Shown piece after piece: positions 23,297-58,948 of a stretch of 64,000 nt of DNA. Made by a program: the position numbers and the translations under genes. Numbering within the stretch: position 1 is the stretch's first letter; each line of letters opens with the position of its first letter. The notes beneath the pieces are model-generated. The model searched no databases. It worked only from the letters and a program-made list of their open reading frames with translations, and was not told the origin of the DNA. The stretch is taken from NCBI GenBank assembly GCA_020619395.1, contig GCA_020619395.1_4860.1; one strand, given 5' to 3'. Origin of the DNA: a phage.

Positions 23297-23299
23297 GTT

Positions 23300-24298: not shown

Positions 24299-24308
24299 CT
24301 GTTACTCC

Positions 24309-25751: not shown

Positions 25752-25762
25752 GAAGTCTCCTG

Positions 25763-26662: not shown

Positions 26663-26664
26663 GA

Positions 26665-27654: not shown

Positions 27655-27666
27655 TGTCGTTACCTC

Positions 27667-29163: not shown

Positions 29164-29176
29164 GGTATTTACTCCA

Positions 29177-30100: not shown

Positions 30101-30109
30101 GACTGCCCC

Positions 30110-31108: not shown

Positions 31109-31119
31109 AGATGATACCT

Positions 31120-32532
31120 CTACTTAAAGCCGTCCAGTTCACCGTTAAGAGACGTTAACGTTGTCTTGTCAGGGGGCGTATACATTTCAGCGGTAGCCGC
31201 AATAGGTTGGAAGTCGACTGTCTTCGGCAGCATTAAAGCAGGCGGATGCAGTGCGAAACTGTTTTCTGAAGTAACAACTACCGGTTCGAAATCGGTAGTA
31301 TCCGGATTACCGAGCACTAACGGCTTGAGACTAAATGTGTTTTCTGCGGACACGCTGCACGGTTGGAGACTGTAATCTGCCGTACCGTGGATATCTTCTA
31401 AACCCAAGGTAACTGTGGACTTATCCACCAACTCCAGCACCGGGAACCAGTAGTAGTTGCCCGCACTCGATGATTTTTCTAAGTTTGTCCAACTTGCTCC
31501 AGACAACGTCGCCATGCGATGATTGGCGACGTTGGTCTTCAGTGTATCTTTCAATAAACAGAACAGCGTCCAGTAACTGTTAATCGGTTTGTCCCACGTT
31601 CCATTATACAGAAAGTTGAACATCTCAAACTCACTACCTGCTAACTCAGCGGCAGTTGGGGTGCCGCTGACGTATGGGTCTTTCCCGGCACTAGGTAGAC
31701 GAACGCGGAAGTAAAACCTTTTGTTGTCTGCGCCTGTAAAGCTAATGATGCGTCCCTGGTTAACGGGCGTCGCCGCAGGGTATTTACCATTATCGTCTGT
31801 TCCGTAAACGAGTCCGTTTGTATATAACGTATTCCAGGAGATGGAGCTAGCGACAGGACTGATCGGAAGGTAAATAACCCTACCCTGGTAAAAGAACTTG
31901 TACCAACCTTCGGCACCAGAATGTACCGGTGGTAACGCACCGGCCGATATAGTGGCATTAAGAAGTTGAGAGTGTGTAAACAACTCTGCAGTTCTGGTTG
32001 TTCCGAAATAACCCGCGATAGTGTTACCTTGCAGCAACGTTTTAGGGCCAGGTCCAGAATCGGGGTAAATTGCACCACTCGGGACGGTATAACGTATCGT
32101 TAAGCTGCCTGTAAACGCAGGGCAATTGCCTGAGATATTTAATTTCAACGTCTGCGGCGAAACGCTCGGTTTAGGTAAACTTGCGTCAGGTGACTGCAAA
32201 TCAGAAGCAACTAATGTAAGCCCCAATGCGTCGTTTATTGCAGGTAGCGCGTCTCGTACCGTTAAGACTGTATCTTTGATAGCCACAGTCGGCACAAAAT
32301 TAAATAAAGTGGCCAGGTTAATCCGGTCGTAGTACACGGTAACATTACCTTGTACACCTGTCCCTGGATACCCGGTGAAAACAGCTTTGGTGTTACGTTG
32401 GTTTAACGTAACTGAAGTTGGGCCACTGGTTAAAGCAGCGATAGCCGGCGTCAGCTTAACAACTAAATCAGGGTTATCCCGATTGACTTGGTCGTATACA
32501 AGCAGTGCCGACTCCTTCGAGTAAAATAGCAT
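31120..32532 (-). CDS. Fibre-module paralog type C, triad 1 (470 aa)
   Basis: VNRDNPDL..RNTKAVFTGYPGTG..VYYDRINLATLF N-terminal module; C-terminal LNGELDGFK. Confidence 0.7.
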   Translation of the reverse strand: MLFYSKESALLVYDQVNRDNPDLVVKLTPAIAALTSGPTSVTLNQRNTKAVFTGYPGTGVQGNVTVYYDRINLATLFNFVPTVAIKDTVLTVRDALPAINDALGLTLVASDLQSPDASLPKPSVSPQTLKLNISGNCPAFTGSLTIRYTVPSGAIYPDSGPGPKTLLQGNTIAGYFGTTRTAELFTHSQLLNATISAGALPPVHSGAEGWYKFFYQGRVIYLPISPVASSISWNTLYTNGLVYGTDDNGKYPAATPVNQGRIISFTGADNKRFYFRVRLPSAGKDPYVSGTPTAAELAGSEFEMFNFLYNGTWDKPINSYWTLFCLLKDTLKTNVANHRMATLSGASWTNLEKSSSAGNYYWFPVLELVDKSTVTLGLEDIHGTADYSLQPCSVSAENTFSLKPLVLGNPDTTDFEPVVVTSENSFALHPPALMLPKTVDFQPIAATAEMYTPPDKTTLTSLNGELDGFK

Positions 32533-32545
32533 AGGGACTCCGCAT

Positions 32546-32576
32546 CGCCAAAAGAGGGGGGCTCCGAAGAGCCCCT
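32546..32576 (-). terminator. Hairpin terminator between short-paralog genes and triad 1
   Basis: Minus-strand GGGGCTC-TTCG-GAGCCCC followed by CCTCTTTTGG. Confidence 0.45.
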
Positions 32577-32580
32577 ACAC

Positions 32581-33408
32581 TTAGCTGTTATAGTGGTAGT
32601 ACGCCACGCCTTTCACGCCTTCCTCATCGATACCCGTTTGGATAACCACGCGGTCGTACGATTTGTTAGCGAACTGAGCGGTGGATGTCGGCACATCCTG
32701 AACGGTGTTACTGTTCAGTGGCCCCGCGTAGTTCGGAATACCCAGGTCATCCAACACCTTACGCAAACCAGCCCACTGCGGTAGGCCAGAAGCATCTACT
32801 GTCAGTAGGTTTTTATACGCGGTAAAGTCAATACCGTACGTCAACAAATCAATACACTTCTTACCGAGAGACGGTGAAATAGGCTCTTGAATCGCATTCA
32901 AGACATCTGATTTCACCGAAGTGTCTAGTACCGGTAAACCACGGTTATAACGCAACGTCGCAGAACCGATATAAGCCGGAGATGTCGATAGCGCTGCAAT
33001 GGTCTGTGTATTGGTGTAATTTGGGGTATTGGCACCAAACAGTGAGTAGTTTTGGATATCGATTGCGGAGAAGTTTACTCCGTAAGTATCCAAGAGCACC
33101 GAAAAGGCTGAGTGGAGGTTGGGCGCGTCAAACGTGACGAACTGCGCCTGGACAGAAGGACCCCACGGCAATAACCGCGCTAAGTTCACACGGTCGTAGT
33201 AAACGGTGATTGCGTCTCGAAATCCGGAACCCTGAATACCGCGCAAGCGTGCCGACGTATTGCGGTTGTTGGAAGCTGCATTAACGGGAACCTGCGTCAC
33301 TTTCTCCACGTAGCAGTTTGCCGGCGACGCTTTAATAGGTAGGTTTGGGTTATCCCGGTTAATGAGGTCAAAGACCAACTCGTTTGACGGCTTAGCATAG
33401 TTGATCAT
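32581..33408 (-). CDS. Fibre-module family short paralog (275 aa)
   Basis: ATG 33408 (tracked TTG 33411). N-terminal module INRDNPNL..RNTSARLRGIQGSGF..VYYDRVNLARLL; C-terminal YYHYNS. Confidence 0.65.
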   Translation of the reverse strand: MINYAKPSNELVFDLINRDNPNLPIKASPANCYVEKVTQVPVNAASNNRNTSARLRGIQGSGFRDAITVYYDRVNLARLLPWGPSVQAQFVTFDAPNLHSAFSVLLDTYGVNFSAIDIQNYSLFGANTPNYTNTQTIAALSTSPAYIGSATLRYNRGLPVLDTSVKSDVLNAIQEPISPSLGKKCIDLLTYGIDFTAYKNLLTVDASGLPQWAGLRKVLDDLGIPNYAGPLNSNTVQDVPTSTAQFANKSYDRVVIQTGIDEEGVKGVAYYHYNS

Positions 33409-33411
33409 CAA

Positions 33412-34299
33412 TTATACCTCGCTTGGATCGTCCAGATCGTTGAACTGGAGATACAACGTTCCGACGATGGTGGTACAGGTAACAGGCAGTTTCAACACCA
33501 GCGCATACTTGTACTTCGCGTTTGTCGGCATTGCAACAGGGTCATTCAGACCAACGCTGATAACCTCCGCGCCCGCCAAACCGTAGGAAGCGGAGGTGGT
33601 CGCTACCCATGCAGTACCCGTGATATCTTTCAGCAGGTTAACCATATCCGTTAACGGCTGTCCGGACAGAATACCCGGCACGTATGCCAGCAACTCATCA
33701 CGGTATTTGGTGAAGTTGTACGGGTAGGAATAAACCTCTGCAATGACCGCAGTAACGGTTTCGGAACCCATCTGACCGTTCGGGTATTTCAGACCGGTCA
33801 GGACGTTAGTGGTGACCGCAGAGACTAACGACTCATCGCCTTTCACGACTTTAAATGTCGCCTGTCCAACCCAACCGATAGACTCAGGATGTGCAACAAC
33901 ACGCACAGTTCCTTCGGTCTTATCACCGTTCCATTCGATATCTGCGTCCTGCAGGTCAGCTTCTTCCAGAACAAAACCGTAACGTTGGTTCAGTCCAGGA
34001 ATGGCCGCATACAAGGTTTCGTTGGATGGGCCGATCGCCAACGTGTCACCAATCAGCACTAACAAGTCTTCGATTTTCATGCGGTTGTAGAAGACATTTT
34101 TCTTACCCGACCAGGTAGAGCCCGTTACCCCATCTGCCGTAATTTTAATTTGCGTGTTACGGTTAGTCAGCGTTTCCTTCTCCGTACCACGGATGTCCTT
34201 TGGCGAGGACCAGATGATGTCAGTCATCTTAACAGCAAGCGAGTTCTGTGCGTTCACTGCTGCCAACAGGACGTCTTTAGAAGGTTGATAAATAGCCAT
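33412..34299 (-). CDS. Fibre-module family short paralog (295 aa)
   Basis: N-terminal module (NRNTQIKITADGVTG..FYNRMKIEDLL); C-terminus LYLQFNDLDDPSEV. Confidence 0.65.
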   Translation of the reverse strand: MAIYQPSKDVLLAAVNAQNSLAVKMTDIIWSSPKDIRGTEKETLTNRNTQIKITADGVTGSTWSGKKNVFYNRMKIEDLLVLIGDTLAIGPSNETLYAAIPGLNQRYGFVLEEADLQDADIEWNGDKTEGTVRVVAHPESIGWVGQATFKVVKGDESLVSAVTTNVLTGLKYPNGQMGSETVTAVIAEVYSYPYNFTKYRDELLAYVPGILSGQPLTDMVNLLKDITGTAWVATTSASYGLAGAEVISVGLNDPVAMPTNAKYKYALVLKLPVTCTTIVGTLYLQFNDLDDPSEV

Positions 34300-34309
34300 T
34301 CGCTAATTC

Positions 34310-35149
34310 CTAGTTGTTGTAGTGCAACATACACTCGCCGATTACTTTCGGGTCGTTCTGAATGCCGGTAATCAGCAATACGTTATCGTACGCTTTATTG
34401 GCGGTCGCCAACTCACTCGTTTTGTAGCGGGTAATTGTGCAGTTCGTCGGATCAAACGACGGTACCCCACGTGCGACCAATGTGGCCATCAGATTGGACG
34501 TGTAACCCAAATCAAAGTTACTTCCTACGTCCATTCGCCCGTTCTTAAACGAGGCCATAACCTGCACTTCATCAGTAAAGTCTTCCCCGTACGTCAAGAA
34601 GCCCATGTATTTCTTACCAGTGCTTGCTGCTGCAGGGTGGTTCAAAGCCGACAAGATGTCGTTTACCACGAGGTCTTCGAGACTATTCTTACCCCGGATA
34701 GACATAAAGGTGATGCTGCCAGTGTATTGGATACAGCTAGCGTTAATGCGCATCGTGTTGTTTACGTTCAGATAAACGTATTGTTCTGGGATATCGTCTG
34801 CAACCAGGTTTAATCCATAACGACCGTTCAGGTTCTGCGCAAACGCAGTACGTTTCGACTCCACGTTCAACCAACCGTAGGCATTCGGTGCAGTTACCTG
34901 AGGTGTCATGTTCTTAAATAAGTCGTTCAGCGACAAGCGCTTATAACGGAACGTCTGAGGACCGATATAGCCACGACCTTGACGACCACGAATGATAATC
35001 TCAGTATTGGCACCGCTTGCTGTCGGTGTGATTGCTTTCGGCGTACCGATGATAGCATTGTCTAAACCCATCGGTAGAACAGCATCCGGGTTTTCGGCAT
35101 TAATCGCATCGTACAGATATTGTCGCTGAGACAGACTATATAAAGCCAT
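34310..35149 (-). CDS. Fibre-module family short paralog (279 aa)
   Basis: ATG 35149 (MALYSLSQ..) with GAGGAGG 5 nt upstream; tracked 35167 start would translate the RBS. C-terminal MLHYNN. Confidence 0.65.
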   Translation of the reverse strand: MALYSLSQRQYLYDAINAENPDAVLPMGLDNAIIGTPKAITPTASGANTEIIIRGRQGRGYIGPQTFRYKRLSLNDLFKNMTPQVTAPNAYGWLNVESKRTAFAQNLNGRYGLNLVADDIPEQYVYLNVNNTMRINASCIQYTGSITFMSIRGKNSLEDLVVNDILSALNHPAAASTGKKYMGFLTYGEDFTDEVQVMASFKNGRMDVGSNFDLGYTSNLMATLVARGVPSFDPTNCTITRYKTSELATANKAYDNVLLITGIQNDPKVIGECMLHYNN

Positions 35150-35167
35150 AATAGCCTCCTCGGCCAA

Positions 35168-35206
35168 AAAAGAAAGGAGTAGCCAGGAGGAGGATTTCCT
35201 CCTCCC
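35168..35206 (-). terminator. Hairpin terminator-like element
   Basis: GGAGGAGG-ATTT-CCTCCTCC stem-loop; U-run begins 9 nt downstream on minus strand. Confidence 0.35.
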
Positions 35207-35218
35207 AGCGAGGCCTAA

Positions 35219-36130
35219 TTAGGCATTAAAGTGCAGGTACATGACGCCCTGGAAGTTGGTGCACAGAGTGTCATCCAGCTGCAGCAGCAGAACCTGGTTG
35301 TAAGCAGTGTTTGCACCTTCAACCGGTTTCTTAGGATCGTCGCCTGAAGCAGTGCCATCGTCAGTAGTAGAACCAACGTACAACACGTTAGCACCTTTCA
35401 GGTTATAATCCGCAGGCTCATCAGATGCAACCCACAGTTCCGGCACAACTTTATTCAGCTCAACCGGGAATGCAGAGTCGCCAGCGATAACACCTTTCGC
35501 CTGTACTTTCAGGAATGCTGCGATTGCTGTGCAGTCTACACCGTAAGAGTAGATGTAGCCCTGACCCTTCGCTTCGCTTGGACCATCTGGGTAAACCAGG
35601 CCGTCGAGCTTGGTTTGTGTTACCACCAGACTCAGACGTTCACCAACCTGAGGCTTAGCACCGATTTTAACCGGGATGCTGCCCAGATATGCGTAGCAGT
35701 CTTCTTTGAAGGTAATGACATGGTCAACCGGTGCTGGGTCCGGATCGTTCGGGTTAGTCAGCGGCGGGTTGGTATTTTCCGGAATAGCCGCCGGAACGAT
35801 ATCGTCTTCGGTCAGCTTCAATCCATATTGGTTGTTCAGGGTCGTCAGCAGGTCTGTGGTGGTTTTCGGCAGTTTAACGTCGAGGTATGCTGTTACGTTA
35901 CGGAACAGCGCACCGCCTTCCAGGCGATTATAAGTCACGTCCTGAGTACCGATGTACCCGGAGTTCTTTTTCGCAGTCAGGGTCATGCTGGTATTGCGAT
36001 CGGCACCTCCATCGATAATAGGGGTCGGTGTGCCGAGCGTTATTTTAGAAAGTTCCAGTTCTGCGTCTGGGTTTTTCTCATTAATAAAATCCAGAACCAG
36101 CTGATCGGACGTTTTGTTTAAAGGTTTCAT
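35219..36130 (-). CDS. Fibre-module family short paralog (303 aa)
   Basis: N-terminal module (INEKNPDAEL..DRNTSMTLTAKKNSGYIG..TYNRLEGGALF); C-terminal MYLHFNA. Confidence 0.65.
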   Translation of the reverse strand: MKPLNKTSDQLVLDFINEKNPDAELELSKITLGTPTPIIDGGADRNTSMTLTAKKNSGYIGTQDVTYNRLEGGALFRNVTAYLDVKLPKTTTDLLTTLNNQYGLKLTEDDIVPAAIPENTNPPLTNPNDPDPAPVDHVITFKEDCYAYLGSIPVKIGAKPQVGERLSLVVTQTKLDGLVYPDGPSEAKGQGYIYSYGVDCTAIAAFLKVQAKGVIAGDSAFPVELNKVVPELWVASDEPADYNLKGANVLYVGSTTDDGTASGDDPKKPVEGANTAYNQVLLLQLDDTLCTNFQGVMYLHFNA

Positions 36131-36151
36131 TCTTACTTCCTTTACTCAGGA

Positions 36152-36997
36152 TTAATCAGGGTCGTTGTAGTGCAAATACAAACGCCCGCCAAAATTCAGA
36201 CAGTACAACGACAGCTCCACAATCAGCACGTTGTCGACTGCTGGGTTGGTTGGTAATTCCGCTTTGTTACGCCCGTTATAGACGACGACGGCTTCACGAA
36301 GGTTAAAGTCGATTGGGTTACGGTACGTTGTCCAGTTATCACCGGTGACCGTTTTGAGAATCTGTGCCAGACGTTCTGCGGTTATCGCAGCACCTAGTCG
36401 TTGAAATTCCTCCGCGAAATTATCAAAGCGCCAGGGATACGAATAAACTGCACCTTGACCGACCTTGATGTTAAAATACGGATACTCGTAAGGTGTTACT
36501 GTTAAGGGTTCGAAGTTTGCAGGAAGCAACGCATCGCCTGGTAACAGCTGTACCTGTTGTTGCCCTATCCAACCTAAAGAAGTGGGCGTGGCAATCAGAT
36601 CCACACGCCATGTCTTCCTGTCGATTTCGGTATTCACCACATCTGCAGGTTTAAGGCTGAGACCGTAATACTGGTTAATTAACCCGACCACGTCATGCAT
36701 CTGGTAAACGGCATCGAGACGTGCAGGAACACGTAGAGGTTGAATCCCGTCTGGGTCGGTAAACATGTCTGCGAAGTCAACACGATCGTAATACACGGTA
36801 GTGGCACCGATAGCATTAGCGGTGGCCAATGCCTGAATGCGCACCATCGCGTTATGACCATTGGCTTTTGCCAGGTCTTCGTCAGACGTCGGAATCGCAG
36901 GGACACCGAAAACCACATCTTCGACTTTTAAATCGAGATTGTTTTCGACGTTAACCTCCGCGATAATAATCTTTTCAGCAGTGGCTAAAAGTGGCAT
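36152..36997 (-). CDS. Fibre-module family short paralog (281 aa)
   Basis: Divergent N-terminal module ..TTVYYDRVDFADMF; C-terminal LYLHYNDPD. Confidence 0.6.
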   Translation of the reverse strand: MPLLATAEKIIIAEVNVENNLDLKVEDVVFGVPAIPTSDEDLAKANGHNAMVRIQALATANAIGATTVYYDRVDFADMFTDPDGIQPLRVPARLDAVYQMHDVVGLINQYYGLSLKPADVVNTEIDRKTWRVDLIATPTSLGWIGQQQVQLLPGDALLPANFEPLTVTPYEYPYFNIKVGQGAVYSYPWRFDNFAEEFQRLGAAITAERLAQILKTVTGDNWTTYRNPIDFNLREAVVVYNGRNKAELPTNPAVDNVLIVELSLYCLNFGGRLYLHYNDPD

Positions 36998-37007
36998 GTC
37001 AAAATCC

Positions 37008-37850
37008 TTATATCGGGAGATAGTGAAGGATGAGATTACCGGCGTAGTTGCTGTCCGCAGCTAGCTTGATAATCGCCACACGCTGATAATCGGGGTTGTA
37101 ACTATCGTTCGGTGTGACTGAAGTTATCCCCATAAATCGCGCACCTTGGAGTGCAATTTGTTCAGGTTGCGCAGTCGCCCCCGTCACATATGCAAACTTT
37201 AATGGCACCACTTCGTTCAGCAATTCAACATCCGCCGCGGTGATTGCGCGGTTGTAAGCCCAATCGGTAGTGAACTGTTTTTGCAGTTCAGTCCAATCGT
37301 AACCATACGCCACATACTCAGCCTGTGGTTTACTAGCAACCACGAACGGCGCGATAATTGCGCTGAGGTCAACATCCGTCACCACATCCGCCAAGTTCGG
37401 GAAGAACTTCGCAAAGCGTAAACGGAAACCACCTTGCCAGGCCAAGCAACCAGGCTTAATAGTCACATCGATTAACCAGCTTTCTCCCAAATCTTTTACT
37501 GACTGGTCAACGATATCGTCGGCAACTAAAGACAAGCCGTATTTCGCATTCAGAAACGGCAACAACTCAGAGAGTTTATTTACCGGGTCGGCAACGACTA
37601 CCGGTATTACGTTCCTGAACAGAATTTCCATTTCGATACGGTCGTATTCGAGCGTAACGTTGCCTTTGTAGCCCTTGCCGTTCAACCCGTATAAGAGCAC
37701 ACGCGTATTCCGGTCAGCGCCAGGCGTTTGGACAGACTCAGGGAAGCCAGTTGCAACCTGCTCCCATGTGAGTGGATTGGCCGTTAATCCGTTCTGTCGG
37801 TTAATAGCATCTAACAACATCTCTTTCGAGGGCTTATCGTAAATAGACAC
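37008..37850 (-). CDS. Fibre-module family short paralog (280 aa)
   Basis: GTG start with AGGAGG 8 nt upstream. INRQNGL..DRNTRVLLYGLNGKGYKG..EYDRIEMEILF; C-terminal LILHYLPI. Confidence 0.65.
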   Translation of the reverse strand: MSIYDKPSKEMLLDAINRQNGLTANPLTWEQVATGFPESVQTPGADRNTRVLLYGLNGKGYKGNVTLEYDRIEMEILFRNVIPVVVADPVNKLSELLPFLNAKYGLSLVADDIVDQSVKDLGESWLIDVTIKPGCLAWQGGFRLRFAKFFPNLADVVTDVDLSAIIAPFVVASKPQAEYVAYGYDWTELQKQFTTDWAYNRAITAADVELLNEVVPLKFAYVTGATAQPEQIALQGARFMGITSVTPNDSYNPDYQRVAIIKLAADSNYAGNLILHYLPI

Positions 37851-37860
37851 CTATACCCTC

Positions 37861-38658
37861 CTAGTTGTTAAAGTGTAGGTTGAGGCTGCCCTGGAAGTTC
37901 GTACATTTATCGGTCAGTTGCACTGACACGACTTTCGCGAACGCCGTATTTGCTCCCGGCAAGTCTGCAGGTACGCCGTCGAATACGACAGTGGCACCAC
38001 GCAGGTTATACGGGGATGGGGTATCTTCAGCTACCCAAATCTCAGGAACACATTTGTTGAGTTCGATTGCCAACGCCGTGTCATCTACCTCGATACCGAC
38101 CGCTAAGAGGCTCAGGAAACGAGAGATGTGGCTACAATCGATGTCACGCGAATAGATATACGCCTGACCCAACTGGATGTCCTGGTGATCCGGGTACAGA
38201 AGACCGCTCAACTCTGTATTGGTTACTACTTCTGCCAGAGGTGTAGCAGGTTTCAGCTCGATGACCGCTTGACTTCGCCACTCGTGGGAAGTTTCAACAG
38301 CAACGACTGTGTGCGTCTGTCCATCAATGGGGTTATCTTCGATATCCTCAGGTAAGATAGACAGATTAAAACGCTCGTTAATCGCCGCGAGTAAGTCGTG
38401 CGTGGTTTGCACGTCCTCGTCTCCAAAGGCAACATCGCCTTTAAGGTAGTCCTCTAATGGACGACGATGGTAGTCCACAATCACTTGCGTACCTTCATCA
38501 CCGCGCATCTTCGAGGTAAGGACTACCTCCGAATCACGACCGTCTACTGACACAACCTCCGGCAGTCCGATATCAACATCGTCAAAGGTAAGCGGTGGGC
38601 TTATCTTATTCTCTTCGTTGATGAGTTTTAGCAGATTCTGTTTTGAAGTAAAAGACAT
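37861..38658 (-). CDS. Fibre-module family short paralog, first gene of array (265 aa)
   Basis: ATG 38658 preceded by palindrome TTAACTCGAGTTAA and no clear SD; C-terminal LNLHFNN. Confidence 0.6.
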   Translation of the reverse strand: MSFTSKQNLLKLINEENKISPPLTFDDVDIGLPEVVSVDGRDSEVVLTSKMRGDEGTQVIVDYHRRPLEDYLKGDVAFGDEDVQTTHDLLAAINERFNLSILPEDIEDNPIDGQTHTVVAVETSHEWRSQAVIELKPATPLAEVVTNTELSGLLYPDHQDIQLGQAYIYSRDIDCSHISRFLSLLAVGIEVDDTALAIELNKCVPEIWVAEDTPSPYNLRGATVVFDGVPADLPGANTAFAKVVSVQLTDKCTNFQGSLNLHFNN

Positions 38659-43747: not shown

Positions 43748-44080
43748 CTACTCATTGACCACCCCCAAACCACTTACAGTGGATGCTGCGGGGACATCCA
43801 GGTTATTCATCCATAGCGACAGCTTGTTCATCTTCGCTGCGGTCTCTGGGCTAGGGTTATTGCGCAATTCACTTAAAGCCATCGCATACTGGGTTGCCAG
43901 TATTTGACTGCCGTAGAAAGCACCACGGCTTACAGGCAGCGCTTCGAAGCGTGCATCGAAATTGTTTGCTTGGTTAAGTTCTTTAACAGTGCTCAGAATG
44001 GCTTCTTGCATTCGAAGTTCACCGTCGCCTTCAAGGTCAGTTGCCTGACGCAATACCGCAATGTGATAGACTTTAGACAT
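43748..44080 (-). CDS. Hypothetical protein (110 aa)
   Basis: AAGGAG RBS; preceded by conserved upstream motif and terminator. Confidence 0.6.
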   Translation of the reverse strand: MSKVYHIAVLRQATDLEGDGELRMQEAILSTVKELNQANNFDARFEALPVSRGAFYGSQILATQYAMALSELRNNPSPETAAKMNKLSLWMNNLDVPAASTVSGLGVVNE

Positions 44081-44140
44081 TTTAATTGCTCCTTAATACA
44101 TGACATAAGTTCTGATTGAAACGTAAATTTCAGAGGTTCA

Positions 44141-44162
44141 CTGAGATAACATCTATCTGAAA
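44141..44162 (-). promoter_or_regulatory. Conserved upstream motif (GAGATAACATCTATCTGAAA class)
   Basis: Plus-strand CTGAGATAACATCTATCTGAAA 60-80 nt upstream of the ATG at 44080; same core at 51581, 59856, 40040, 58148. Confidence 0.4.
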
Positions 44163-44202
44163 TAAAATAAAGCGTACCAGCCACCCCGAAGGATAGCTGG
44201 TA
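44163..44202 (-). terminator. Rho-independent terminator
   Basis: Minus-strand CCAGCTATCC-TTCG-GGGTGGCTGG (two G-U pairs) followed by TACGCTTTATTTTATTT. Confidence 0.6.
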
Positions 44203-44207
44203 TACAC

Positions 44208-45020
44208 TTAGTTAGTTTCGAGTGGATCGTCTGGAATAGTAAACGTTATATCAAGTGAAGCTGTTGTGTGGTTGGGGATTGCCAAGTCGTGATAGATATC
44301 ATGCCCTGCACCATGTTCTTTATAGAGGAGATACAACCCGATTGCACGCATCGCTTCCCCGGTATAAAACCCAAAGGCTTGACCGTTATCCGTAGTAGGG
44401 TTTGCCCACGGAGACCAGGCACCGTTAATGGCTTTTCCTGGAATGTCTGTGACGGTGAAGTTGTCACCCATCTCTTTCATCCCCATATCCATAATTCGGT
44501 CTAACCCATCCACCGTACAACCGGCCATTGCTGCGTAAGCACTGCCTGCTATCCAGAGCGCACACATATGTGCTGTGAAATCATTCTCTACCCATACCGG
44601 TTTATTTGGTGCCGTAGGGAATTCATTCGGGGTGTGGTTGTCAAAGCGGTCTAAGAACCCTACGAGCCACTTAGCCCAATTTTCAACGTACACTACTAGC
44701 TCAGGTGGAACCTCTTTACCACGCACCACCAACTCGTACCAACAACGCGCAGCGGCGTTATACGCGCGCGGCTGATAACCTGCCCACGGATGTCCATCGC
44801 CCCAATGGAACGTTGTCCACGTATCTGCCGGACCGTAAGGGTAGTTATCCCAACGGTTCCAAATATACGCCGCACAACCTGGACCTAACTCACCTATCTG
44901 CGTTTGGTAGTTGGTTTGTGAATCGTGCATAAACCGAATCTGATTTAAGAGCCAGTCTTTGTAGCGATCATCGGTGTGTATGGTGTACATAAACGGATAC
45001 TGATAGCCGGGATACGGCAT
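44208..45020 (-). CDS. Hypothetical protein (270 aa), Trp/His-rich
   Basis: Long ORF in operon orientation; no assignable motif. Confidence 0.55.
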   Translation of the reverse strand: MPYPGYQYPFMYTIHTDDRYKDWLLNQIRFMHDSQTNYQTQIGELGPGCAAYIWNRWDNYPYGPADTWTTFHWGDGHPWAGYQPRAYNAAARCWYELVVRGKEVPPELVVYVENWAKWLVGFLDRFDNHTPNEFPTAPNKPVWVENDFTAHMCALWIAGSAYAAMAGCTVDGLDRIMDMGMKEMGDNFTVTDIPGKAINGAWSPWANPTTDNGQAFGFYTGEAMRAIGLYLLYKEHGAGHDIYHDLAIPNHTTASLDITFTIPDDPLETN

Positions 45021-45034
45021 CCCGTGCCATGCAC

Positions 45035-45313
45035 CTAGCTGATACGTTCCTTCCGAATAAATGTTCGAGAACGGTATCGTACCTGGACAATACGCGAGCG
45101 AGTCAAGACGGTAATCTTCTTACCGTTAGGTTTACGTGCTTTCGCAATGTACGCTTGCGAGGTACGGGCACTTTCAACACCTAAGTCGATTGGCCCTACT
45201 CCGCTTATCACAATCTCGTCAGGCGATAATGACAAGCCGTTATCGTGATTAATCAACGCCACGACAAGCGCTTTCGACGAGAGTGTTAGGTCGGGCTGAT
45301 AGCGGTCTGCCAT
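45035..45313 (-). CDS. Hypothetical protein (92 aa)
   Basis: ATG 45313 with GGAGG 6 nt upstream, immediately after a terminator; tracked 45349 start lies inside the hairpin. Confidence 0.45.
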   Translation of the reverse strand: MADRYQPDLTLSSKALVVALINHDNGLSLSPDEIVISGVGPIDLGVESARTSQAYIAKARKPNGKKITVLTRSRIVQVRYRSRTFIRKERIS

Positions 45314-45326
45314 TAACGCCTCCAGA

Positions 45327-45370
45327 AACAAAAAAAAATAAGCTACCACACATATGATCGTGTGGTAGCC
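45327..45370 (-). terminator. Rho-independent terminator
   Basis: Minus-strand GCTACCACAC..GTGTGGTAGC 10-bp stem followed by TTATTTTTTTTTG. Confidence 0.75.
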
Positions 45371-45383
45371 TACTCGTACGGTG

Positions 45384-45779
45384 TTAGTGCAGTGTAGCGC
45401 TGTGCACTACAGTTAACCCGCGACGTCCGATTTCATCCGCGATGGATTGCAACAGCTTATCGTAACCCACCTTTACAAATTCAGGTAAGCCGCGGTCAAC
45501 CATCTCCATCTCGGTGATTTCTTCACGGAAAACTTGACAACAGCCTTCTAAATAACGTTTAGCTTCTGTCACGTCATCGACATACCGCGCATAACTCAGG
45601 GCGATCGCGTAACCTTCTGCAATAAACGCATACTTCATGAAGACTTCAGGGTCGAGTTCTTCAACTGCCACGTCTAGACGTGAAGCGGTCTGACGTACAG
45701 AGTTACGTAATGATTCAGAAAACAGTGTAGTCGTAACCATATCCTGATTAGGAACGGTTTTAGGCATAATCAATTTCAC
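45384..45779 (-). CDS. Hypothetical protein (131 aa)
   Basis: GTG start with AAGGAG about 9 nt upstream. Confidence 0.55.
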   Translation of the reverse strand: MKLIMPKTVPNQDMVTTTLFSESLRNSVRQTASRLDVAVEELDPEVFMKYAFIAEGYAIALSYARYVDDVTEAKRYLEGCCQVFREEITEMEMVDRGLPEFVKVGYDKLLQSIADEIGRRGLTVVHSATLH

Positions 45780-45790
45780 GAGGACTCTCC

Positions 45791-46174
45791 TTACGATAAC
45801 TCGCCCATGTAAATTACTTCATAACCGAACCACTCACCGATTTCAATAAGGTAAGAAACTAGCAAGTGGCGATGACAGAATTTCCCCGGTGGGCAATAGC
45901 ACATTAGTACGACCTCGCCCTGGCGGAGAATCTCTATCAACTTATCAGTGTCTTCATCAAACAACCGACTAAGTTTCTGCAGGTAGCGTTTGGTATACGC
46001 AGCTTCTGCGTCGGGGCCTTTGTCAGACTTCTTGTAGTCCATCAGAAAGTCCCAGTCAGGTGCCAAATATTTCAGCCCCGACTTAACCGTTATATCCAGC
46101 TTTGGCAAATTCCGTTTTTCAGCTATCCGCCACTTCGCCAGTTGGAGCGTCCACAGCTTTACTTGCTTTGGCAT
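45791..46174 (-). CDS. Hypothetical protein with CYCPPGKFCHRH motif (127 aa)
   Basis: Start set to ATG 46174 (MPKQVKLW); Cys/His cluster near C-terminus; overlaps 3' end of upstream gene by 56 nt. Confidence 0.45.
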   Translation of the reverse strand: MPKQVKLWTLQLAKWRIAEKRNLPKLDITVKSGLKYLAPDWDFLMDYKKSDKGPDAEAAYTKRYLQKLSRLFDEDTDKLIEILRQGEVVLMCYCPPGKFCHRHLLVSYLIEIGEWFGYEVIYMGELS

Positions 46175-47126
46175 TTTTCGCTCTCTCTTTTTCTTTCTCC
46201 TGAAGCGCTTTAAAATGCGGTGCATATTCGCACCACTCTTCTGCTGTAAATGACGTGATAAACAGTCTTTCGGTATCTTCAGTTACCGTAAAGGTTGTGT
46301 GATTTCTTTTCGGGTCCTTAAAGTTAGCAAAAGTCGGTACGTCCAAACCCATAGCAGAAATAGCACCACCAAGAGCAGAGCACCATACCCGTCTGTAAGC
46401 ATCGTTGATTTTAATCTCCCATCCCACAGACGGTGTAATACCAAGACTACGATAATTCTGCGACTTTGCCGACGGATGGGCATAAACGATGAGCATGTTA
46501 TTCTCACGGTCTATCGCGAATTCGTAGTTGTTGTAGTTACTGACCTGCACCAATCTACGAATGTCTTCCGGCAACTCCTGCCACATTTCCAGTTTCTCTT
46601 TATCCCACGCAGGTGTTAGAAGCGGTGGAACGCGGCCGGCATGATCTTGGAAATACATCAGTTCGCTATAAAGGTTCTTTAAGCGAGCGTACTCGTCTAA
46701 TGTCCAATCTCCCAGCTCTAGACTATTCTCCAACGCATCTAGCTTATTCCAGCCAACAACTGCATAGGCGTGGTGCTGTTTGCGTGTAATGTCGCACATC
46801 AGTTTAGCGAGACCGTTAACAACATTGCCTTGCTGAACCAGAGGCGACCAGCCGTTAGCGTAGCCGGCGCTAACGACAGGCGGAAAGTTCTCTTCCCCGA
46901 GCACCGCCCATGTAACACGATCGGTTTGTGCGTGGTATCTGTCCATTAACCGTTCAACAATGGCCACACTACAAAGAATTTCCATGAAGTTCGCGTTACC
47001 TCCATTCCACATGGAGAAATATGCAGGACGGACATGTCGCGCTTCATTGGCCGGTGCTTTGCACAACAGCTGATACATTATCCAGGTGGAATCCAACCCT
47101 GCTGAAAACGAAACGAGCTTCGTCAT
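46119..47126 (-). CDS. PP-loop superfamily ATP pyrophosphatase-like enzyme (335 aa)
   Basis: N-terminal SFSAGLDST resembles the SGGxDS PP-loop (QueC / PAPS-reductase-like families); GAGG RBS. Confidence 0.55.
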   Translation of the reverse strand: MTKLVSFSAGLDSTWIMYQLLCKAPANEARHVRPAYFSMWNGGNANFMEILCSVAIVERLMDRYHAQTDRVTWAVLGEENFPPVVSAGYANGWSPLVQQGNVVNGLAKLMCDITRKQHHAYAVVGWNKLDALENSLELGDWTLDEYARLKNLYSELMYFQDHAGRVPPLLTPAWDKEKLEMWQELPEDIRRLVQVSNYNNYEFAIDRENNMLIVYAHPSAKSQNYRSLGITPSVGWEIKINDAYRRVWCSALGGAISAMGLDVPTFANFKDPKRNHTTFTVTEDTERLFITSFTAEEWCEYAPHFKALQEKEKERAKNAKASKAVDAPTGEVADS

Positions 47127-47134
47127 CCTTTACC

Positions 47135-47467
47135 TCACTTTTGTTTCTGTTTTTCTTCACGCATCAACTTAGCGTTCAGGTCGACCATGTAACCCGGTTT
47201 TTCCATCACCTGCACTTCTTCCCAGTTGCTTCCCACCGTCATTTTGAGTGTTCCTTGACGTACCGCGATTTCTTTTGCAGTGTCACGGCAGACCTCTAAC
47301 GCTTCGTCCAAATCGTTAAAGGTTGTCTTCTGTGGTCCGTTAAAGGTTTTAGCGCATTCCAGGAATACACGTTCGTAAACATCCTGGTCGAGTAAGAGTG
47401 GTTTGTCCGCAGCGTGGGCAACCATAGGCGCAACGAGTGCGCCTAACAGAACTAAAACTTTCTTCAT
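47135..47467 (-). CDS. Secreted/periplasmic small protein (110 aa)
   Basis: Start set to ATG 47467: MKKVLVLLGALVAPMVAHA signal peptide with AHA-A cleavage-like site. Confidence 0.55.
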   Translation of the reverse strand: MKKVLVLLGALVAPMVAHAADKPLLLDQDVYERVFLECAKTFNGPQKTTFNDLDEALEVCRDTAKEIAVRQGTLKMTVGSNWEEVQVMEKPGYMVDLNAKLMREEKQKQK

Positions 47468-47557
47468 TGTTTCACCGTGCGTATAAGTTGATAACGTAGG
47501 GTTAAAATTAAATCCATGTAACCTAGGGTCAATAGCGCACATGCGGCGCTATTAGCA

Positions 47558-49318
47558 CTATGCTTTCTCTGTCCAAGCGTGACCACGCAGCGTTTCACCA
47601 CGTATGTCGTATTGCTTATATTTCGAAGAGTCGTAAGACGCAGGTAAGAAGATCTGATGAACAATATCCGCCAGTCGACGAGCACCAAGGTTCTCTACAG
47701 CATTGGCTTCCATTGTTTTCTCAGCGATGAACGTATAGGTGTCCATGTCGTACTGCGTTTCCACCCCTTCGGTTTTCAACAACTTAATCATGCCGTGGAA
47801 CTCACTGTTATCCAACTTACAGATAGCAATCAGTGCCTCGGTATCCAGCGAAGACATTTTCGCCCTTAACGGAAAACGTCCCTGGAGTTCTGCCATGAGT
47901 TTAGAAACAGGCGCTTGAGCAAACGACCCAGCAGCGACAAAAAGCACATTGGTTGTGTCAACGCCATGATAAATACCTCCTTCAACCATTTTCAACAAGC
48001 TACGCTGCACACCACTACGGGATACACGTGCAGAGTGTTGCGTGTCAACCTCGATAAGTTTGTCAAACTCATCCAGGAACACCACCGCAAAGTTCTCAAC
48101 GAAATCATGCCCATTACAGTTGGGTAGTTTCTTGAGGTCTTTGCGGCTGACTGTTTCTTTTTCTGGTGCAACTGTTTCAGGTATCTCGTAATGCCAGAGT
48201 CGTTCATCAGCGTATTTGGTAAATTCTGGAGAACCTTCGAACACGTCATCCCACCAACGACACCACTTCTCAGGATCTTCCAAACGAGACAACATGCGAA
48301 TAGTAAACGCTGCAGCGTCGATCGGGAACCAATTAATGCCCACCGGCTCGGCGTCCTCGTCGTCGCCGTTAAACGTGTCGAACAAATCGTAGAAATCTGA
48401 GCCATCGGCACATGAGAGCGGAAGGTTATTCGACATCAACTTTTGACCAGCATCAACGTATAAGTCAATCTGTTCGCCTAAAGCCATCAGCGACATAAAC
48501 TCACCCATATACCCAATCGTGCCCGGTATATCGCCACCCATTAACTCATCGACTTGACTTTCAAGTTCTTCACTATTTAACAGTTCAGAAATTGACGAGA
48601 CACCGAGCAGACTCCTTGCGATTTCCGACATCTTATCTATCCATTCCTGCACAGTACGACCACCGAGCGCAACAGAATAAATATCGAAGTCTTCGTAGGT
48701 TAAATTATGTTGACGGCAATAGCCAACCATAAACGCGCGAAGACAATAGATGTCTTGGTATTCTTCGTACAACTCCTTCGGATCGAGTATACCCTGACGC
48801 CGTAATAGTTCGGTGTGTTCACGTTTAGCTTGATACCGCAGCTGGCGCTCAGCGGCGCGCTCGTCTAGTTCACGTTCAACTTCCTTGCGGGATTCACGCT
48901 CCCACTCTTCTCGAGTAAGACGATTACCGTCTACTTCCGACTCGACACGACGTTTGGTACGCAGTTCGATATACCAGTCGGGCAATTCGACAGAACGCGC
49001 TAAGTCGGCTAAGTCCTTGCCGATTGATGTAACTTCCCGGCCTACGTAGCCCGATTCTGTAAACGCGGTCATGTCGAGTTCCAGTACGGGTAAACCGAAT
49101 TTAGTTTTCAGTACCCGCATCAACGCCGTTTTACCCGTGCCTGTTGGACCTTCTATTAAAAGGTTCTGTTTGTGGACCGACATACGGTCCACTACGTTGA
49201 GTTTGTTGGCACGATATCGATTACGTAGCGCAATCGCCAGCATTTTCTTTGCCTGCGTTTGTCCGTATACGTAACGGTCGAATAGCGCCACTATCTCAAT
49301 CGGCGTAAGGTTTTCCAT
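47558..49318 (-). CDS. HslU/ClpX-family AAA+ ATPase (586 aa)
   Basis: N-terminus TPIEIVALFDRYVYGQTQAKKMLAIALRNRYR..LIEGPTGTGKTALMR..FTESGYVGREV and C-terminus VFLDEFDK..GVQRSLLKMVEG..ENLGARRL parallel E. coli HslU block by block (from memory). Confidence 0.75.
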   Translation of the reverse strand: MENLTPIEIVALFDRYVYGQTQAKKMLAIALRNRYRANKLNVVDRMSVHKQNLLIEGPTGTGKTALMRVLKTKFGLPVLELDMTAFTESGYVGREVTSIGKDLADLARSVELPDWYIELRTKRRVESEVDGNRLTREEWERESRKEVERELDERAAERQLRYQAKREHTELLRRQGILDPKELYEEYQDIYCLRAFMVGYCRQHNLTYEDFDIYSVALGGRTVQEWIDKMSEIARSLLGVSSISELLNSEELESQVDELMGGDIPGTIGYMGEFMSLMALGEQIDLYVDAGQKLMSNNLPLSCADGSDFYDLFDTFNGDDEDAEPVGINWFPIDAAAFTIRMLSRLEDPEKWCRWWDDVFEGSPEFTKYADERLWHYEIPETVAPEKETVSRKDLKKLPNCNGHDFVENFAVVFLDEFDKLIEVDTQHSARVSRSGVQRSLLKMVEGGIYHGVDTTNVLFVAAGSFAQAPVSKLMAELQGRFPLRAKMSSLDTEALIAICKLDNSEFHGMIKLLKTEGVETQYDMDTYTFIAEKTMEANAVENLGARRLADIVHQIFLPASYDSSKYKQYDIRGETLRGHAWTEKA

Positions 49319-49527
49319 TATTTTTCCTCTTTCAATATCTCAGCAACCGCTTTGCGACACGCGTTCACCGCGTCAGGATAAGTGCTATTGTTCGGGTCTA
49401 CTCGATCAATACACATTCTGAACGTACTGGTTGCGGTCTCGCGACGTTCTGCAGTGCGGGTACTGGTACTGACGGCGATATAAATACAGAACAACACAGC
49501 AGCTGCAATCGGCCAACGTAAGTTCAT
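49318..49527 (-). CDS. Small membrane-anchored protein (69 aa)
   Basis: Hydrophobic N-terminus WPIAAAVLFCIYIAVS; start and stop overlap neighbours by TAATG-type coupling. Confidence 0.45.
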   Translation of the reverse strand: MNLRWPIAAAVLFCIYIAVSTSTRTAERRETATSTFRMCIDRVDPNNSTYPDAVNACRKAVAEILKEEK

Positions 49528-50225
49528 CAGTAATCCCCCGTTGCCCCTATCGCAGTCGCTACTTTACTGGCAACCTCGTCAACCGGAAGCACCACCTCGT
49601 CTTTCTTGCTCACAATCTCTGGCACTTCTTTGACATGTTCAACGGTCACGTCAAATTTCCGAGTATAACCAACAAGTAACTTTGCCATTTCTGCACGACT
49701 AACGAACTGTTGTTCTTCTGACAGATGCAACGACGTATCAAGTAGTCCGGAATGCATGAAGTTTTCAATGAGTTGGTCTTCTTCTGCTTTGAAGTCGTAC
49801 CGCTCGTTCGGTGCAGCCACAAATGCATAACCGAAATACTTCCCCTCTTCCTGTTCAGGGCGTAACGATTTAACTAACTCCTCAGCGTGTTCACAGAAGT
49901 CCGCCAAAGTATAATCGTCAAGTGTGGCAACTGCGGTTTCTGTTACAATTTCACCGCTGTCGAGTTCGGTGAGGTGCATCACCCACAGGTGCCATGGGCG
50001 CGGTTGGTCGAACAGCCCACCGACTAACATGTCTGTGGCGATAGCACGAATACGTGGACTTGCTGTAAAGTGAAAACCGCGGCCCGCGTACGGGCCGAGA
50101 CGGCGAATGGAGCTGCCAATAAAGGTGATGCGGTTCAGCGCGTTTTCAGCGATGGTGTGCGCTGTACGCTCTGTAGCAGCTTTTGGGTTATACTTTTTGT
50201 TACGGGGTTTCTTTTGCTTAGCCAT
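49527..50225 (-). CDS. Hypothetical protein (232 aa)
   Basis: ORF directly upstream of the HslU-like gene; no HslV-like motifs. Confidence 0.55.
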   Translation of the reverse strand: MAKQKKPRNKKYNPKAATERTAHTIAENALNRITFIGSSIRRLGPYAGRGFHFTASPRIRAIATDMLVGGLFDQPRPWHLWVMHLTELDSGEIVTETAVATLDDYTLADFCEHAEELVKSLRPEQEEGKYFGYAFVAAPNERYDFKAEEDQLIENFMHSGLLDTSLHLSEEQQFVSRAEMAKLLVGYTRKFDVTVEHVKEVPEIVSKKDEVVLPVDEVASKVATAIGATGDY

Positions 50226-51196: not shown

Positions 51197-51237
51197 AAAA
51201 ATAAAAAGAACCCTACCTAACCGAAGTTAGGTAGGGG
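51197..51237 (-). terminator. Rho-independent terminator
   Basis: Minus-strand CCCTACCTAAC-TTCG-GTTAGGTAGGG followed by TTCTTTTTATTTTT. Confidence 0.75.
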
Positions 51238-58264: not shown

Positions 58265-58888
58265 CTAACCTGCCAGAATACGTTCAACGATACGGGCGGC
58301 CTGTAACGCCATATCGTCGTCTGCTGTAATTCGCATCAGTGGAAACTTATCACCACCGTCTGTAGTGATGTGGAACGCAAAACGGTAATGGTCGCGTAAG
58401 GCGTCCCAATCGGTCTGTGAGCGCAGATACTTCGCTGTCAGTACCTCATCATCCCAGTGCTTACCTTGTGCTTCTACGCGCTTCTTAAAGCGTTCTGTGG
58501 CGGTTTCGTAAGATACATCGGTTGCCACGTAAAGCTTTGGTGCGTTAATGTGGTCTAATACTCGCGAACGGAAAACTTCCCCTTTACCATCTACGCCCTG
58601 GTAGACAATGGTCGATTGACAAAAACGGTCAAAAATAACGACATCGTGCTCTGGTACAACGAAATCCATTGTATATTGGAAATCCAGACACATCGCTTTG
58701 GCAATACGTTCATTAGAGGCGTGCTGGATAACCAGAGAGCGTGCACTAATACCGGCTTCAGTGGTATTCGTCGGGTGATTGACGATGGTGACATTAACGC
58801 CAGCGGAGCGCAACATCGCTTGAATCATTTTCGCGAGTGTTGATTTGCCAGAAAAGTCCGGACCATCCAGCGCCACTGAGTTTAACAT
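58265..58888 (-). CDS. tmk: Thymidylate kinase-like dNMP kinase (207 aa)
   Basis: P-loop ALDGPDFSGKST and DRFCQSTIVYQG (DRY..AYQG-like) typical of dTMP kinases. ATG 58888 with GGGGAAG upstream (tracked GTG 58930 lacks SD). Confidence 0.65.
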   Translation of the reverse strand: MLNSVALDGPDFSGKSTLAKMIQAMLRSAGVNVTIVNHPTNTTEAGISARSLVIQHASNERIAKAMCLDFQYTMDFVVPEHDVVIFDRFCQSTIVYQGVDGKGEVFRSRVLDHINAPKLYVATDVSYETATERFKKRVEAQGKHWDDEVLTAKYLRSQTDWDALRDHYRFAFHITTDGGDKFPLMRITADDDMALQAARIVERILAG

Positions 58889-58948
58889 TTTATTCTTCCC
58901 CAAAAGTTTAATTAATTGTAGTGGTGTCACAATATAGCGAGCATACGT

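Follow-up and report, generated by a model that had tools for sequence, protein, structure and literature searches.

A divergent PP-loop ATP pyrophosphatase of the QueC/Cap9 branch encoded beside a DUF488-N3a protein in a Salmonella jumbo phage

Canonical QueC carries, besides the SGGxDS PP-loop, the motifs YxQxHxxE (35-42), VPxRN (96-100) and YPDC (131-134), the lysine K165 and a zinc motif, C(x)8CxxCxxC (186-204) (Libby et al. 2026, PMC13329287), and its function is abolished by any of the substitutions Y35A, R99A, Y131A and Y189A (PMC13329287). The same scaffold has been turned by bacteria into protein-modifying anti-phage immunity enzymes (2025-2026; PMC13329287, PMC13279940), namely Cap9, which keeps the QueC motifs and the zinc site, and QatC, which has a rebuilt active site with the zinc motif still kept. 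Here we describe a phage-encoded relative of these enzymes, found in a stretch of 64,000 nucleotides (nt; the window throughout) of GenBank assembly GCA_020619395.1, contig GCA_020619395.1_4860.1. It is a protein of 335 amino acids (aa), the ortholog of gp119 of Salmonella phage SPN3US, and its gene overlaps that of a 127-aa DUF488-N3a protein, the ortholog of SPN3US gp120; the SPN3US names are used for the window proteins below. Judged from sequence and distribution, the two would be separate enzymes that stand side by side through shared lineage history, gp119 a remodelled adenylate-forming ligase for a substrate other than that of QueC and gp120 a DUF488-N3a enzyme, a reading to which we give a probability of roughly 0.55.

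The PP-loop protein and its place beside QueC and Cap9

Megablast identifies positions 44000-50000 of the window as DNA of an SPN3US-like Salmonella jumbo phage of the genus Seoulvirus, the closest match being Salmonella phage 1252 at 98.8% identity. A first-pass annotation, made from the letters of the window, had called three open reading frames (ORFs), the coordinates of which proved exact; they lie on the minus strand, and their products are 99% identical to SPN3US gp120 (45791-46174), gp119 (46119-47126) and gp118 (47135-47467). The features central to the argument are as follows.

46119-47126, minus strand: divergent PP-loop ATP pyrophosphatase, 335 aa, gp119 ortholog (conservation, fold and profile)
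47085-47105, minus strand: PP-loop motif S8-A-G-L-D-S-T14, which in this class binds the pyrophosphate part of ATP
46119-46174, minus strand: 56 nt in which the 3' end of the PP-loop gene and the 5' end of the DUF488 gene overlap out of frame (ORF coordinates)
45791-46174, minus strand: DUF488-N3a protein, 127 aa, gp120 ortholog (Pfam match and conserved site)

The 335-aa ORF starts MTKLVSFSAGLDSTW and is preceded by a good Shine-Dalgarno sequence, AGGTAAAGG. Its PP-loop/HUP domain extends over approximately residues 1-195 and is followed by a family-specific C-terminal domain (196-325), which matches no solved fold, and by a disordered Lys/Glu-rich tail. The motif, V5-S-F-S-A-G-L-D-S-T14, lies directly after the strand E2-6, which is the position of the loop in the superfamily; the first glycine of SGGxDS is an alanine in the clade of the window, with T/S-G-G-L-D-S-T found in other clades. 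By itself the motif is weak evidence, because the relaxed pattern [ST][AG]G.DS[ST] occurs a second time in the six-frame translation of the window (two occurrences against 0.03 expected in shuffles); this other match, SAGADSS at 2755 on the minus strand and antisense to a large plus-strand ORF (15-3242), is probably due to chance. The real evidence is conservation, with the fold adding to it. In an alignment of 12 sequences G10, L11, D12, S13, T14, W15, Q98, Q99, G100, G125, W126, D130, E133, P172, W174, K178, K221 and G229 are invariant, and G10, S13, Q98, G125, P172, K178 and K221 are still so among 46. The AlphaFold2 (AF2) model, built on only 12 sequences, has the Rossmann-like alpha/beta fold of the HUP class, and the lysine segment 'P-L/W-x4-5-K' is present as P172 and K178, aligned to P159/K165 of QueC and to PLLDWHK of Cap9. 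The protein is acidic, with an isoelectric point of 5.7, and no nucleic-acid-binding domain (THUMP, PUA or other) was recognised in it. Nor is any cysteine conserved in the family, no column of the 46-sequence alignment having more than 11 of 46 Cys, which argues against sulfur insertion by the PP-loop protein alone, one of the roles that had been suggested for it.

Single-sequence scans of the window protein gave no match in Pfam (E<=1), NCBIfam or PADLOC, and its match in PHROGs is phrog_8825, of unknown function. When the 46-sequence family profile was compared with PDB sequences, it matched Cap9 (E=5.7e-5), QueC (2.4e-3) and TilS (2.9e-3), the alignments spanning the PP-loop and, more weakly, the 'P-L-x-x-x-K' segment. 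Cap9 is the best match both by fold and by profile, QueC and Cap9 are the nearest relatives, and in the fold comparison these two outscore GMP or NAD synthetases. Weak Pfam matches are found among the family members, to QueC in 15 of the 46 and to ATP_bind_3 in 10, and among predicted viral structures the top matches of the model are members of its family, followed by QueC-annotated phage proteins (RSF1, Noxifer; E 1e-8 to 1e-5). Since conservation, the PDB profile, Pfam and structure matches all agree, the assignment as a PP-loop protein, already proposed in the first-pass annotation, is sound, with QueC/Cap9 the nearest branch. The profile search recommended there thus established a relation to QueC, Cap9 and TilS but not membership of QueC, for which no Pfam or NCBIfam threshold was reached. 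The name '7-cyano-7-deazaguanine synthase' that a homolog, P0017, bears at the Joint Genome Institute (JGI) rests on a similarly sub-threshold match to TIGR00364, of 12.8 bits against a cut-off of 150.

Alignment of the family profile with E. coli QueC by hhalign (probability 92.3%, E=5.5e-7, 163 columns; the motif positions of the QueC sequence used agree with PMC13329287) gives the following correspondence.

QueC SGGQDST: SAGLDST, kept
QueC E42: E49, kept
QueC N100: N101, kept
QueC G122: G125, kept
QueC E125: E133, kept
QueC P159: P172, kept
QueC K165: K178, kept
QueC Y35/Q37/H39: M39/N41/G43, replaced
QueC R99: G100, in the segment V97-Q-Q-G-N101, replaced
QueC YPDC: GDWT (G139-D-W-T142), replaced
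QueC zinc region C(x)8CxxCxxC: nothing aligned, the alignment ending before this region, not kept

Of the motifs YxQxHxxE, VPxRN and YPDC only the glutamate and the asparagine survive in the gp119 family. In comparison with QueC (PF06508) the protein is about 105 residues longer and has a new C-terminal domain, the zinc motif is missing and conservation does not extend to the essential R99, Y35 and Y131. The surroundings are equally unlike those of a deazaguanine pathway: the annotation of the 40 kb of SPN3US that surround the ortholog (85-125 kb) lists neither a DpdA/TGT transglycosylase nor QueD, QueE or FolE, no deazaguanine-pathway Pfam family was matched by the scanned window neighbours, and SPN3US does not appear in the examined supplementary files of Hutinet et al. 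2019. That gp119 is QueC itself is ruled out by the sub-threshold models and the loss of both the substrate motifs and the zinc motif, and the 7-deazaguanine role that had been put forward, for which the pathway genes are also lacking, was not borne out.

The family differs from Cap9 and QatC as well, keeping neither the QueC substrate motifs nor the zinc motif; none of the Cap9 motifs F/YxQ(x)5E, RN and YxDC or of the QatC motifs D(x)4R(x)7WxR, HP and P(x)4TK is present in the 46-sequence consensus. While Cap9 belongs to type IV CBASS (cyclic oligonucleotide-based anti-phage signalling system) and QatC to QatABCD, gp119 is encoded by a phage and not in a defence island. No CD-NTase, QatB-like, KAP ATPase or TatD partner lies by gp119, where neither a CD-NTase Pfam match nor a PADLOC match was obtained, and the neighbour proteins, which start MPKQ, MKKV (a signal peptide), MENL and MKLI, lack a flexible N-terminal glycine motif. 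On the strength of its sequences the gp119 family is best described as a zinc-less QueC-like PP-loop branch, a new variant outside the coverage of Pfam and NCBIfam.

The family comprises 17 clusters among 5.8 billion proteins, and the 12-sequence profile matched 47 clusters at E<=1e-3 among 1.84 billion representatives. It was not found in 185,579 bacterial and archaeal species, searched as one genome each with close patterns that would miss distant relatives. By tblastn the gene is present in 68 phage records, nearly all of Salmonella and Erwinia jumbo phages, and among the matches listed it is annotated as 'hypothetical' in every phage record except that of Klebsiella phage Miami, where gp102 is a 'rossmann fold-containing protein'. 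A distant member, P0071, ties the family to Miami gp102 and to ORF200 of Pseudomonas phage EL, and all the genomic contexts examined are those of jumbo phages. In three deeply diverged members, EL ORF200 and those of loci L012 and L022, a thymidylate kinase gene lies immediately downstream (L019, EL ORF200-ORF201; L012, 8001-9959; L022, 6001-7956), and a conserved protein of 272-310 aa and unknown function precedes the PP-loop gene, the two being adjacent in L012 and L022 and separated by a single small ORF in EL. This kinase was the sole Pfam match among nine neighbours of DUF488 or PP-loop genes in phiKZ, L012, L014 and L016; the thymidylate kinase gene of the window, at 58265-58930 on the minus strand, is 11 kb upstream of the PP-loop gene. 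Downstream of the distant PP-loop genes of L007, L011, L018, L023 and L024 there is no conserved small partner, the proteins there being neither alike nor DUF488-like, and the window holds no second PP-loop gene and no second (inactive) DUF488 paralog at E<10. Several of the SPFM-series records (LR535901-LR535917) match the PP-loop, DUF488 and gp118 genes as 3-6 short pieces with 24-70% query coverage, which looks like the product of frameshift-rich assemblies rather than real gene decay.

The DUF488-N3a protein

The small protein contains CYCPPGKFCHRH, in which the motif CYCPPGKFCHR is encoded at 45869-45901. Its longest ORF is 45791-46225 and would overlap the PP-loop gene by 107 nt; the ATG at 46174, which has a purine-rich ribosome-binding site and is the start annotated in SPN3US and phage 1252, gives the 127-aa protein and the 56-nt overlap. 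It matches PF22751 (DUF488-N3a) with E=6.2e-12 and 46.3 bits, for a cut-off of 27, and PF04343 (DUF488) with 28.1 bits, for a cut-off of 22.2; a match to DUF4326 is weak, and a sequence search of the PDB gave none. Across 19 homologs (37% to 91% identity) C92, C94, F99, C100, H101, R102, G124 and E125 are invariant, giving the signature C-Y-C-x2-G-x-F-C-H-R. Given the Pfam assignment and the invariance of the Cys, His and Arg residues, CYCPPGKFCHR would be the active site of an enzyme and was rejected as a zinc finger. Of the small Cys/His-motif partner in the first-pass annotation the overlap therefore stands, at 56 nt, while a zinc-type reading of the motif gives way to a DUF488-N3a enzyme of the rhodanese-phosphatase type.

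The clade of DUF488 and DUF4326 has been predicted to act on the phosphate of ribose or ADP-ribose-type groups, not on sulfur (PMC9503650). Like the DUF488-type family of that study, gp120 carries an invariant Cys...Cys-His-Arg site, but where the viral DUF4326 proteins are fused to Macro, NADAR or SLOG domains (PMC9503650) it is a stand-alone protein of 127 aa. Proteins like gp120 are widespread, tblastn finding them in 290 phage records, the majority of which have no PP-loop gene, and relatives occur in phiKZ, PhiPA3, Phabio, Noxifer, Serratia 2050HW and Vibrio BONAISHI. The grouping of RapZ-C, DUF488 and DUF4326 is reportedly due to Burroughs and Aravind in 2023, with a predicted action on the phosphates of sugars, nucleotides and nucleic-acid ends. 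The phiKZ protein gp151 (L021, 155325-155675) is the ortholog of gp120, sharing 39% identity and its length class and matching PF22751 with E=2e-9; phiKZ differs in having neither a PP-loop nor an HslU-like gene within 8 kb of this gene. Silencing gp151 by antisense knock-down gave about ten times as many plaques and, at 30 min, a strong shift in phage transcript levels (PMC12571901), a phenotype suggesting that a gp120-type enzyme may restrain or tune infection.

The surrounding gene block

Every gene of the stretch around the PP-loop gene is carried on the minus strand, and the remaining features of the block are listed here.

47135-47467, minus strand: Sec-type signal-peptide protein, 110 aa, gp118 ortholog (signal residues 1-19, 47411-47467)
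47558-49318, minus strand: HslU/ClpX-like AAA+ ATPase, 586 aa, with a long insertion (Pfam AAA_2 and AAA)
45384-45779, minus strand: gp121 ortholog, 131 aa, the last gene before the terminator (phrog_17719, function unknown)
45336-45375, minus strand: strong terminator-like hairpin, a 17-bp stem then a T run, closing the unit (consensus match)
51211-51236, minus strand: terminator-like hairpin, an 11-bp stem then a T run, at the upstream end (consensus match)

The two hairpins flank nine genes on the same strand, gp113 to gp121, and as these consensus matches bracket the block its co-transcription is likely. A Pfam scan of the gp121-like protein gave no significant match, and the 64-kb window has no tRNA genes.

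The 110-aa protein starts MKKVLVLLGALVAPMVAHA-ADKP and has two cysteines in its mature part. By inspection, its layout is that of a Sec signal, MKK being the n-region, VLVLLGALVAPMV the h-region and AHA-AD the AxA site. It had been described as following the PP-loop gene, which is correct on plus-strand coordinates; in the direction of transcription it lies upstream. A match to phrog_10627 (function unknown) and a presence in only 32 phage records, including Erwinia phage phiEaH2 where it is again directly upstream of the PP-loop gene, mark this protein as an unrelated, lineage-specific neighbour. A 69-aa ORF like gp116 (49318-49527, minus strand) also has a hydrophobic N-terminus and two cysteines and lies directly upstream of the AAA+ gene, its stop codon overlapping the AAA+ start codon by one base; gp116 and gp118, similar in layout, were considered as paralogs and rejected, since they do not align.

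The 586-aa protein matches the hslU and clpX models in both halves of its AAA+ region but differs from these unfoldases in having a long insertion in place of the I-domain, and with E=8e-62 and 209.6 bits for NCBIfam hslU (TIGR00390), below the cut-off of 362.45, it is HslU-like only. HslV was not found among the scanned window neighbours; in a paper on a related phage HslV-like genes are reported and HslU is not. The AAA+ gene is present in phage 1252 and in L004, L005, L006, L008 and L009, and Erwinia jumbo phages keep a 50%-identical protein. It is absent from SPN3US, where the slot holds an unrelated 161-aa gp117 ('head maturation protease' in RefSeq, with no Pfam match), and only 3 of 41 near-identical phage records have it at full coverage.

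Compared with SPN3US and phage 1252 the window is short of approximately 2.92 kb (the positions concerned are 44208-45020 and 45035-45349, with the junction near 45106-45126). Of the 1005-aa tail-associated protein gp124 of the intact phages only the C-terminal 270 aa are left, gp123 has been lost together with most of gp122, and a chimeric ORF of 104 aa combines 81 aa of gp122 with 27 aa translated from within gp124. A short imperfect repeat AGACGGTAAYYTTYTT at the junction, found at both ends in intact phages, suggests a microhomology-mediated deletion. Elsewhere in the window, about 16 consecutive ORFs of 265-498 aa (22394-38658, minus strand), the SPN3US counterparts of which are annotated 'virion structural protein', have the appearance of a paralog array.

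Two enzymes side by side and their possible activities

On the reading given at the outset, gp119 would be a remodelled PP-loop ATP pyrophosphatase of the QueC/Cap9 type, known so far only in jumbo phages. It retains the parts needed to bind ATP and cleave it to AMP and pyrophosphate, namely the PP-loop with E49, N101, the strand of G125 and the lysine of P172...K178, and has swapped out all the QueC substrate and zinc motifs while gaining a C-terminal domain with the invariant K221 and G229. As the replaced residues are those that recognise 7-carboxy-7-deazaguanine, the enzyme would adenylate a carboxyl or carbonyl oxygen of some other substrate, as is standard for the class, and a nucleophile would then displace AMP, giving an amide or amidine ligase. 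A small molecule resembling a nucleobase or nucleotide, or a protein, is favoured as the substrate over tRNA or DNA, because gp119 is acidic and has no nucleic-acid-binding module, and the thymidylate kinase next to EL ORF200 and the L012 and L022 members is a hint towards nucleotide metabolism. For gp120, the invariant Cys/His/Arg site would probably serve phosphate transfer or a phosphatase reaction on a ribose- or nucleotide-type group, an activity exerted without the PP-loop enzyme across many of the nucleus-forming, phiKZ-like jumbo phages. This chemistry, the class of the substrate and the independence of the two enzymes are what we infer from the ORFs, motifs, fold, family membership and distribution described above.

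Separate function is suggested by the distribution of the two genes. No DUF488 gene lies near the PP-loop gene of EL or Miami (flanks of about 20 kb, taken across the circular junction in EL) or in the shorter or contig-limited flanks of L007, L011, L012, L022 and L024, and no PP-loop gene lies within 8 kb of DUF488 in phiKZ, L014, L016 or L017; in L017, gp114, gp115 and DUF488 still follow in order, and the PP-loop gene, the AAA+ gene and gp118 are all missing. As the pairing is confined to one lineage, it does not prove that the two function together; simple inheritance may account for the adjacency, because gp113, gp115 and gp127 also match among the Salmonella and Erwinia phages and the whole region is thus syntenic. 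In our reading DUF488 is conserved widely among phiKZ-like phages and has a variable slot upstream, filled in some lineages by the PP-loop gene, the AAA+ gene and gp118.

Several observations pull the other way. The overlap, of about 45-55 nt in the Erwinia-phage loci L004 and L005, is kept at 44-56 nt across Salmonella and Erwinia phages with PP-loop proteins that share only 34% identity, and in L006, L008 and L009 (the latter two from a metagenomic phage), where the order is PP-loop, AAA+, DUF488, the three genes are still within 4 kb. An overlap so conserved, and a proximity that survives rearrangement, speak to some degree for a functional link. DUF488 is not the only partner in such an overlap, however: the PP-loop gene of L008 shares 53 nt with another gene, one of 163 aa. 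The alanine in place of the first glycine of SGGxDS might weaken ATP binding in the SPN3US subclade, the structural support for gp119 is the 12-sequence AF2 model, the preference for a class of substrate rests on two negative features, the acidic isoelectric point and the lack of a known nucleic-acid-binding domain, and in every phage the role of gp119 is derived from sequence and modelling.

The first-pass annotation had envisaged that the PP-loop enzyme and a Cys/His partner introduce a modified base into phage DNA or tRNA, either a thio-base or a derivative of 7-deazaguanine, as protection from restriction. QueC and Cap9 are indeed the top structural and profile neighbours, P0017 bears the name of a 7-cyano-7-deazaguanine synthase and QueC proteins are annotated in some phages of the phiKZ-like type (Noxifer, RSF1). 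That name comes from a sub-threshold match, though, the preQ0-essential Y35, R99, Y131 and Y189 and the zinc motif are absent from gp119, there is no conserved cysteine for persulfide or Fe-S chemistry, DpdA/TGT, QueD, QueE and FolE are unannotated around the SPN3US ortholog, the Hutinet et al. files examined do not include SPN3US, and the protein is acidic and has no THUMP, PUA or other nucleic-acid-binding domain, all of which makes base modification improbable; no evidence for a link to anti-restriction was found. A split pair after the fashion of ThiI, in which PP-loop and rhodanese domains are joined, would have gp119 adenylate uridine or another carbonyl and gp120, as a member of the rhodanese superfamily, deliver sulfur from a cysteine persulfide. 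Here gp119 lacks the THUMP domain and catalytic cysteine of ThiI, and its family has neither a conserved resolving cysteine nor Fe-S ligands; gp120 belongs to the phosphatase-like DUF488 clade predicted to act on phosphate (PMC9503650) and is not a rhodanese sulfur carrier, and either gene occurs alone in most lineages, so that thiolation is very hard to credit. Both of these proposals conflict with the features tested.

Protein ligation in the manner of Cap9 or QatC would see gp119 adenylate a carboxylated base or another acid and attach it to a partner protein (gp120, the HslU-like ATPase or a protein of the host), at the amino terminus or on a lysine, in phage takeover or in interference with deazaguanylation-dependent immunity (type IV CBASS, QatABCD). 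Cap9 tops the fold and profile matches, the QueC scaffold has been reused at least twice for protein N-termini, once with a fully remodelled active site in QatC (PMC13329287, PMC13279940), and gp119 is an acidic protein whose new C-terminal domain might serve as a docking site for a protein and whose gene is in synteny with one for an unfoldase-type AAA+. It would seem an unlikely explanation nonetheless, as the zinc-cysteine motif common to Cap9 and QatC is missing, no neighbour has the flexible N-terminal glycine motif that QatB and the CD-NTase require, in SPN3US, EL and Miami the PP-loop gene is unaccompanied by the AAA+ gene or by DUF488, and PADLOC gave no match. An amidoligase of the GMP-synthase or NAD-synthetase type, acting on a free (deoxy)nucleotide or a cofactor during takeover of host metabolism, is a possibility that we regard as similarly doubtful: the PP-loop gene sits next to the kinase in a single EL-like group only, where the synteny may have been inherited, a glutamine amidotransferase partner is seen in no locus, and QueC and Cap9 score above GMP or NAD synthetases by fold. 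It is conceivable, if rather unlikely, that gp119 is the first phage-borne repurposed QueC-type enzyme, a counter-defence or takeover ligase on a new substrate, working perhaps with the DUF488 phosphatase and the HslU-like unfoldase; it might, for example, consume or re-route the host carboxy-deazaguanine that type IV CBASS and Qat need, or tag a protein, RNA or nucleotide.

The reuse of QueC scaffolds in bacterial immunity raises the interest of the locus, tempered by the weak evidence for cooperation of gp119 with its neighbours, and an ordinary metabolic amidoligase would be of modest interest only. If the preferred reading of two separate enzymes holds, the gp119 family would be a third, independently remodelled version of the QueC scaffold, on the side of the phage, with no zinc site and a domain unlike solved folds. 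Its substrate could reveal a new adenylation chemistry or a new way in which nucleus-forming phages manipulate the nucleotide or deazapurine metabolism of their hosts, and through the orthology of gp120 and gp151 the locus offers a way to approach an uncharacterised gene that is conserved widely in phiKZ-like phages.

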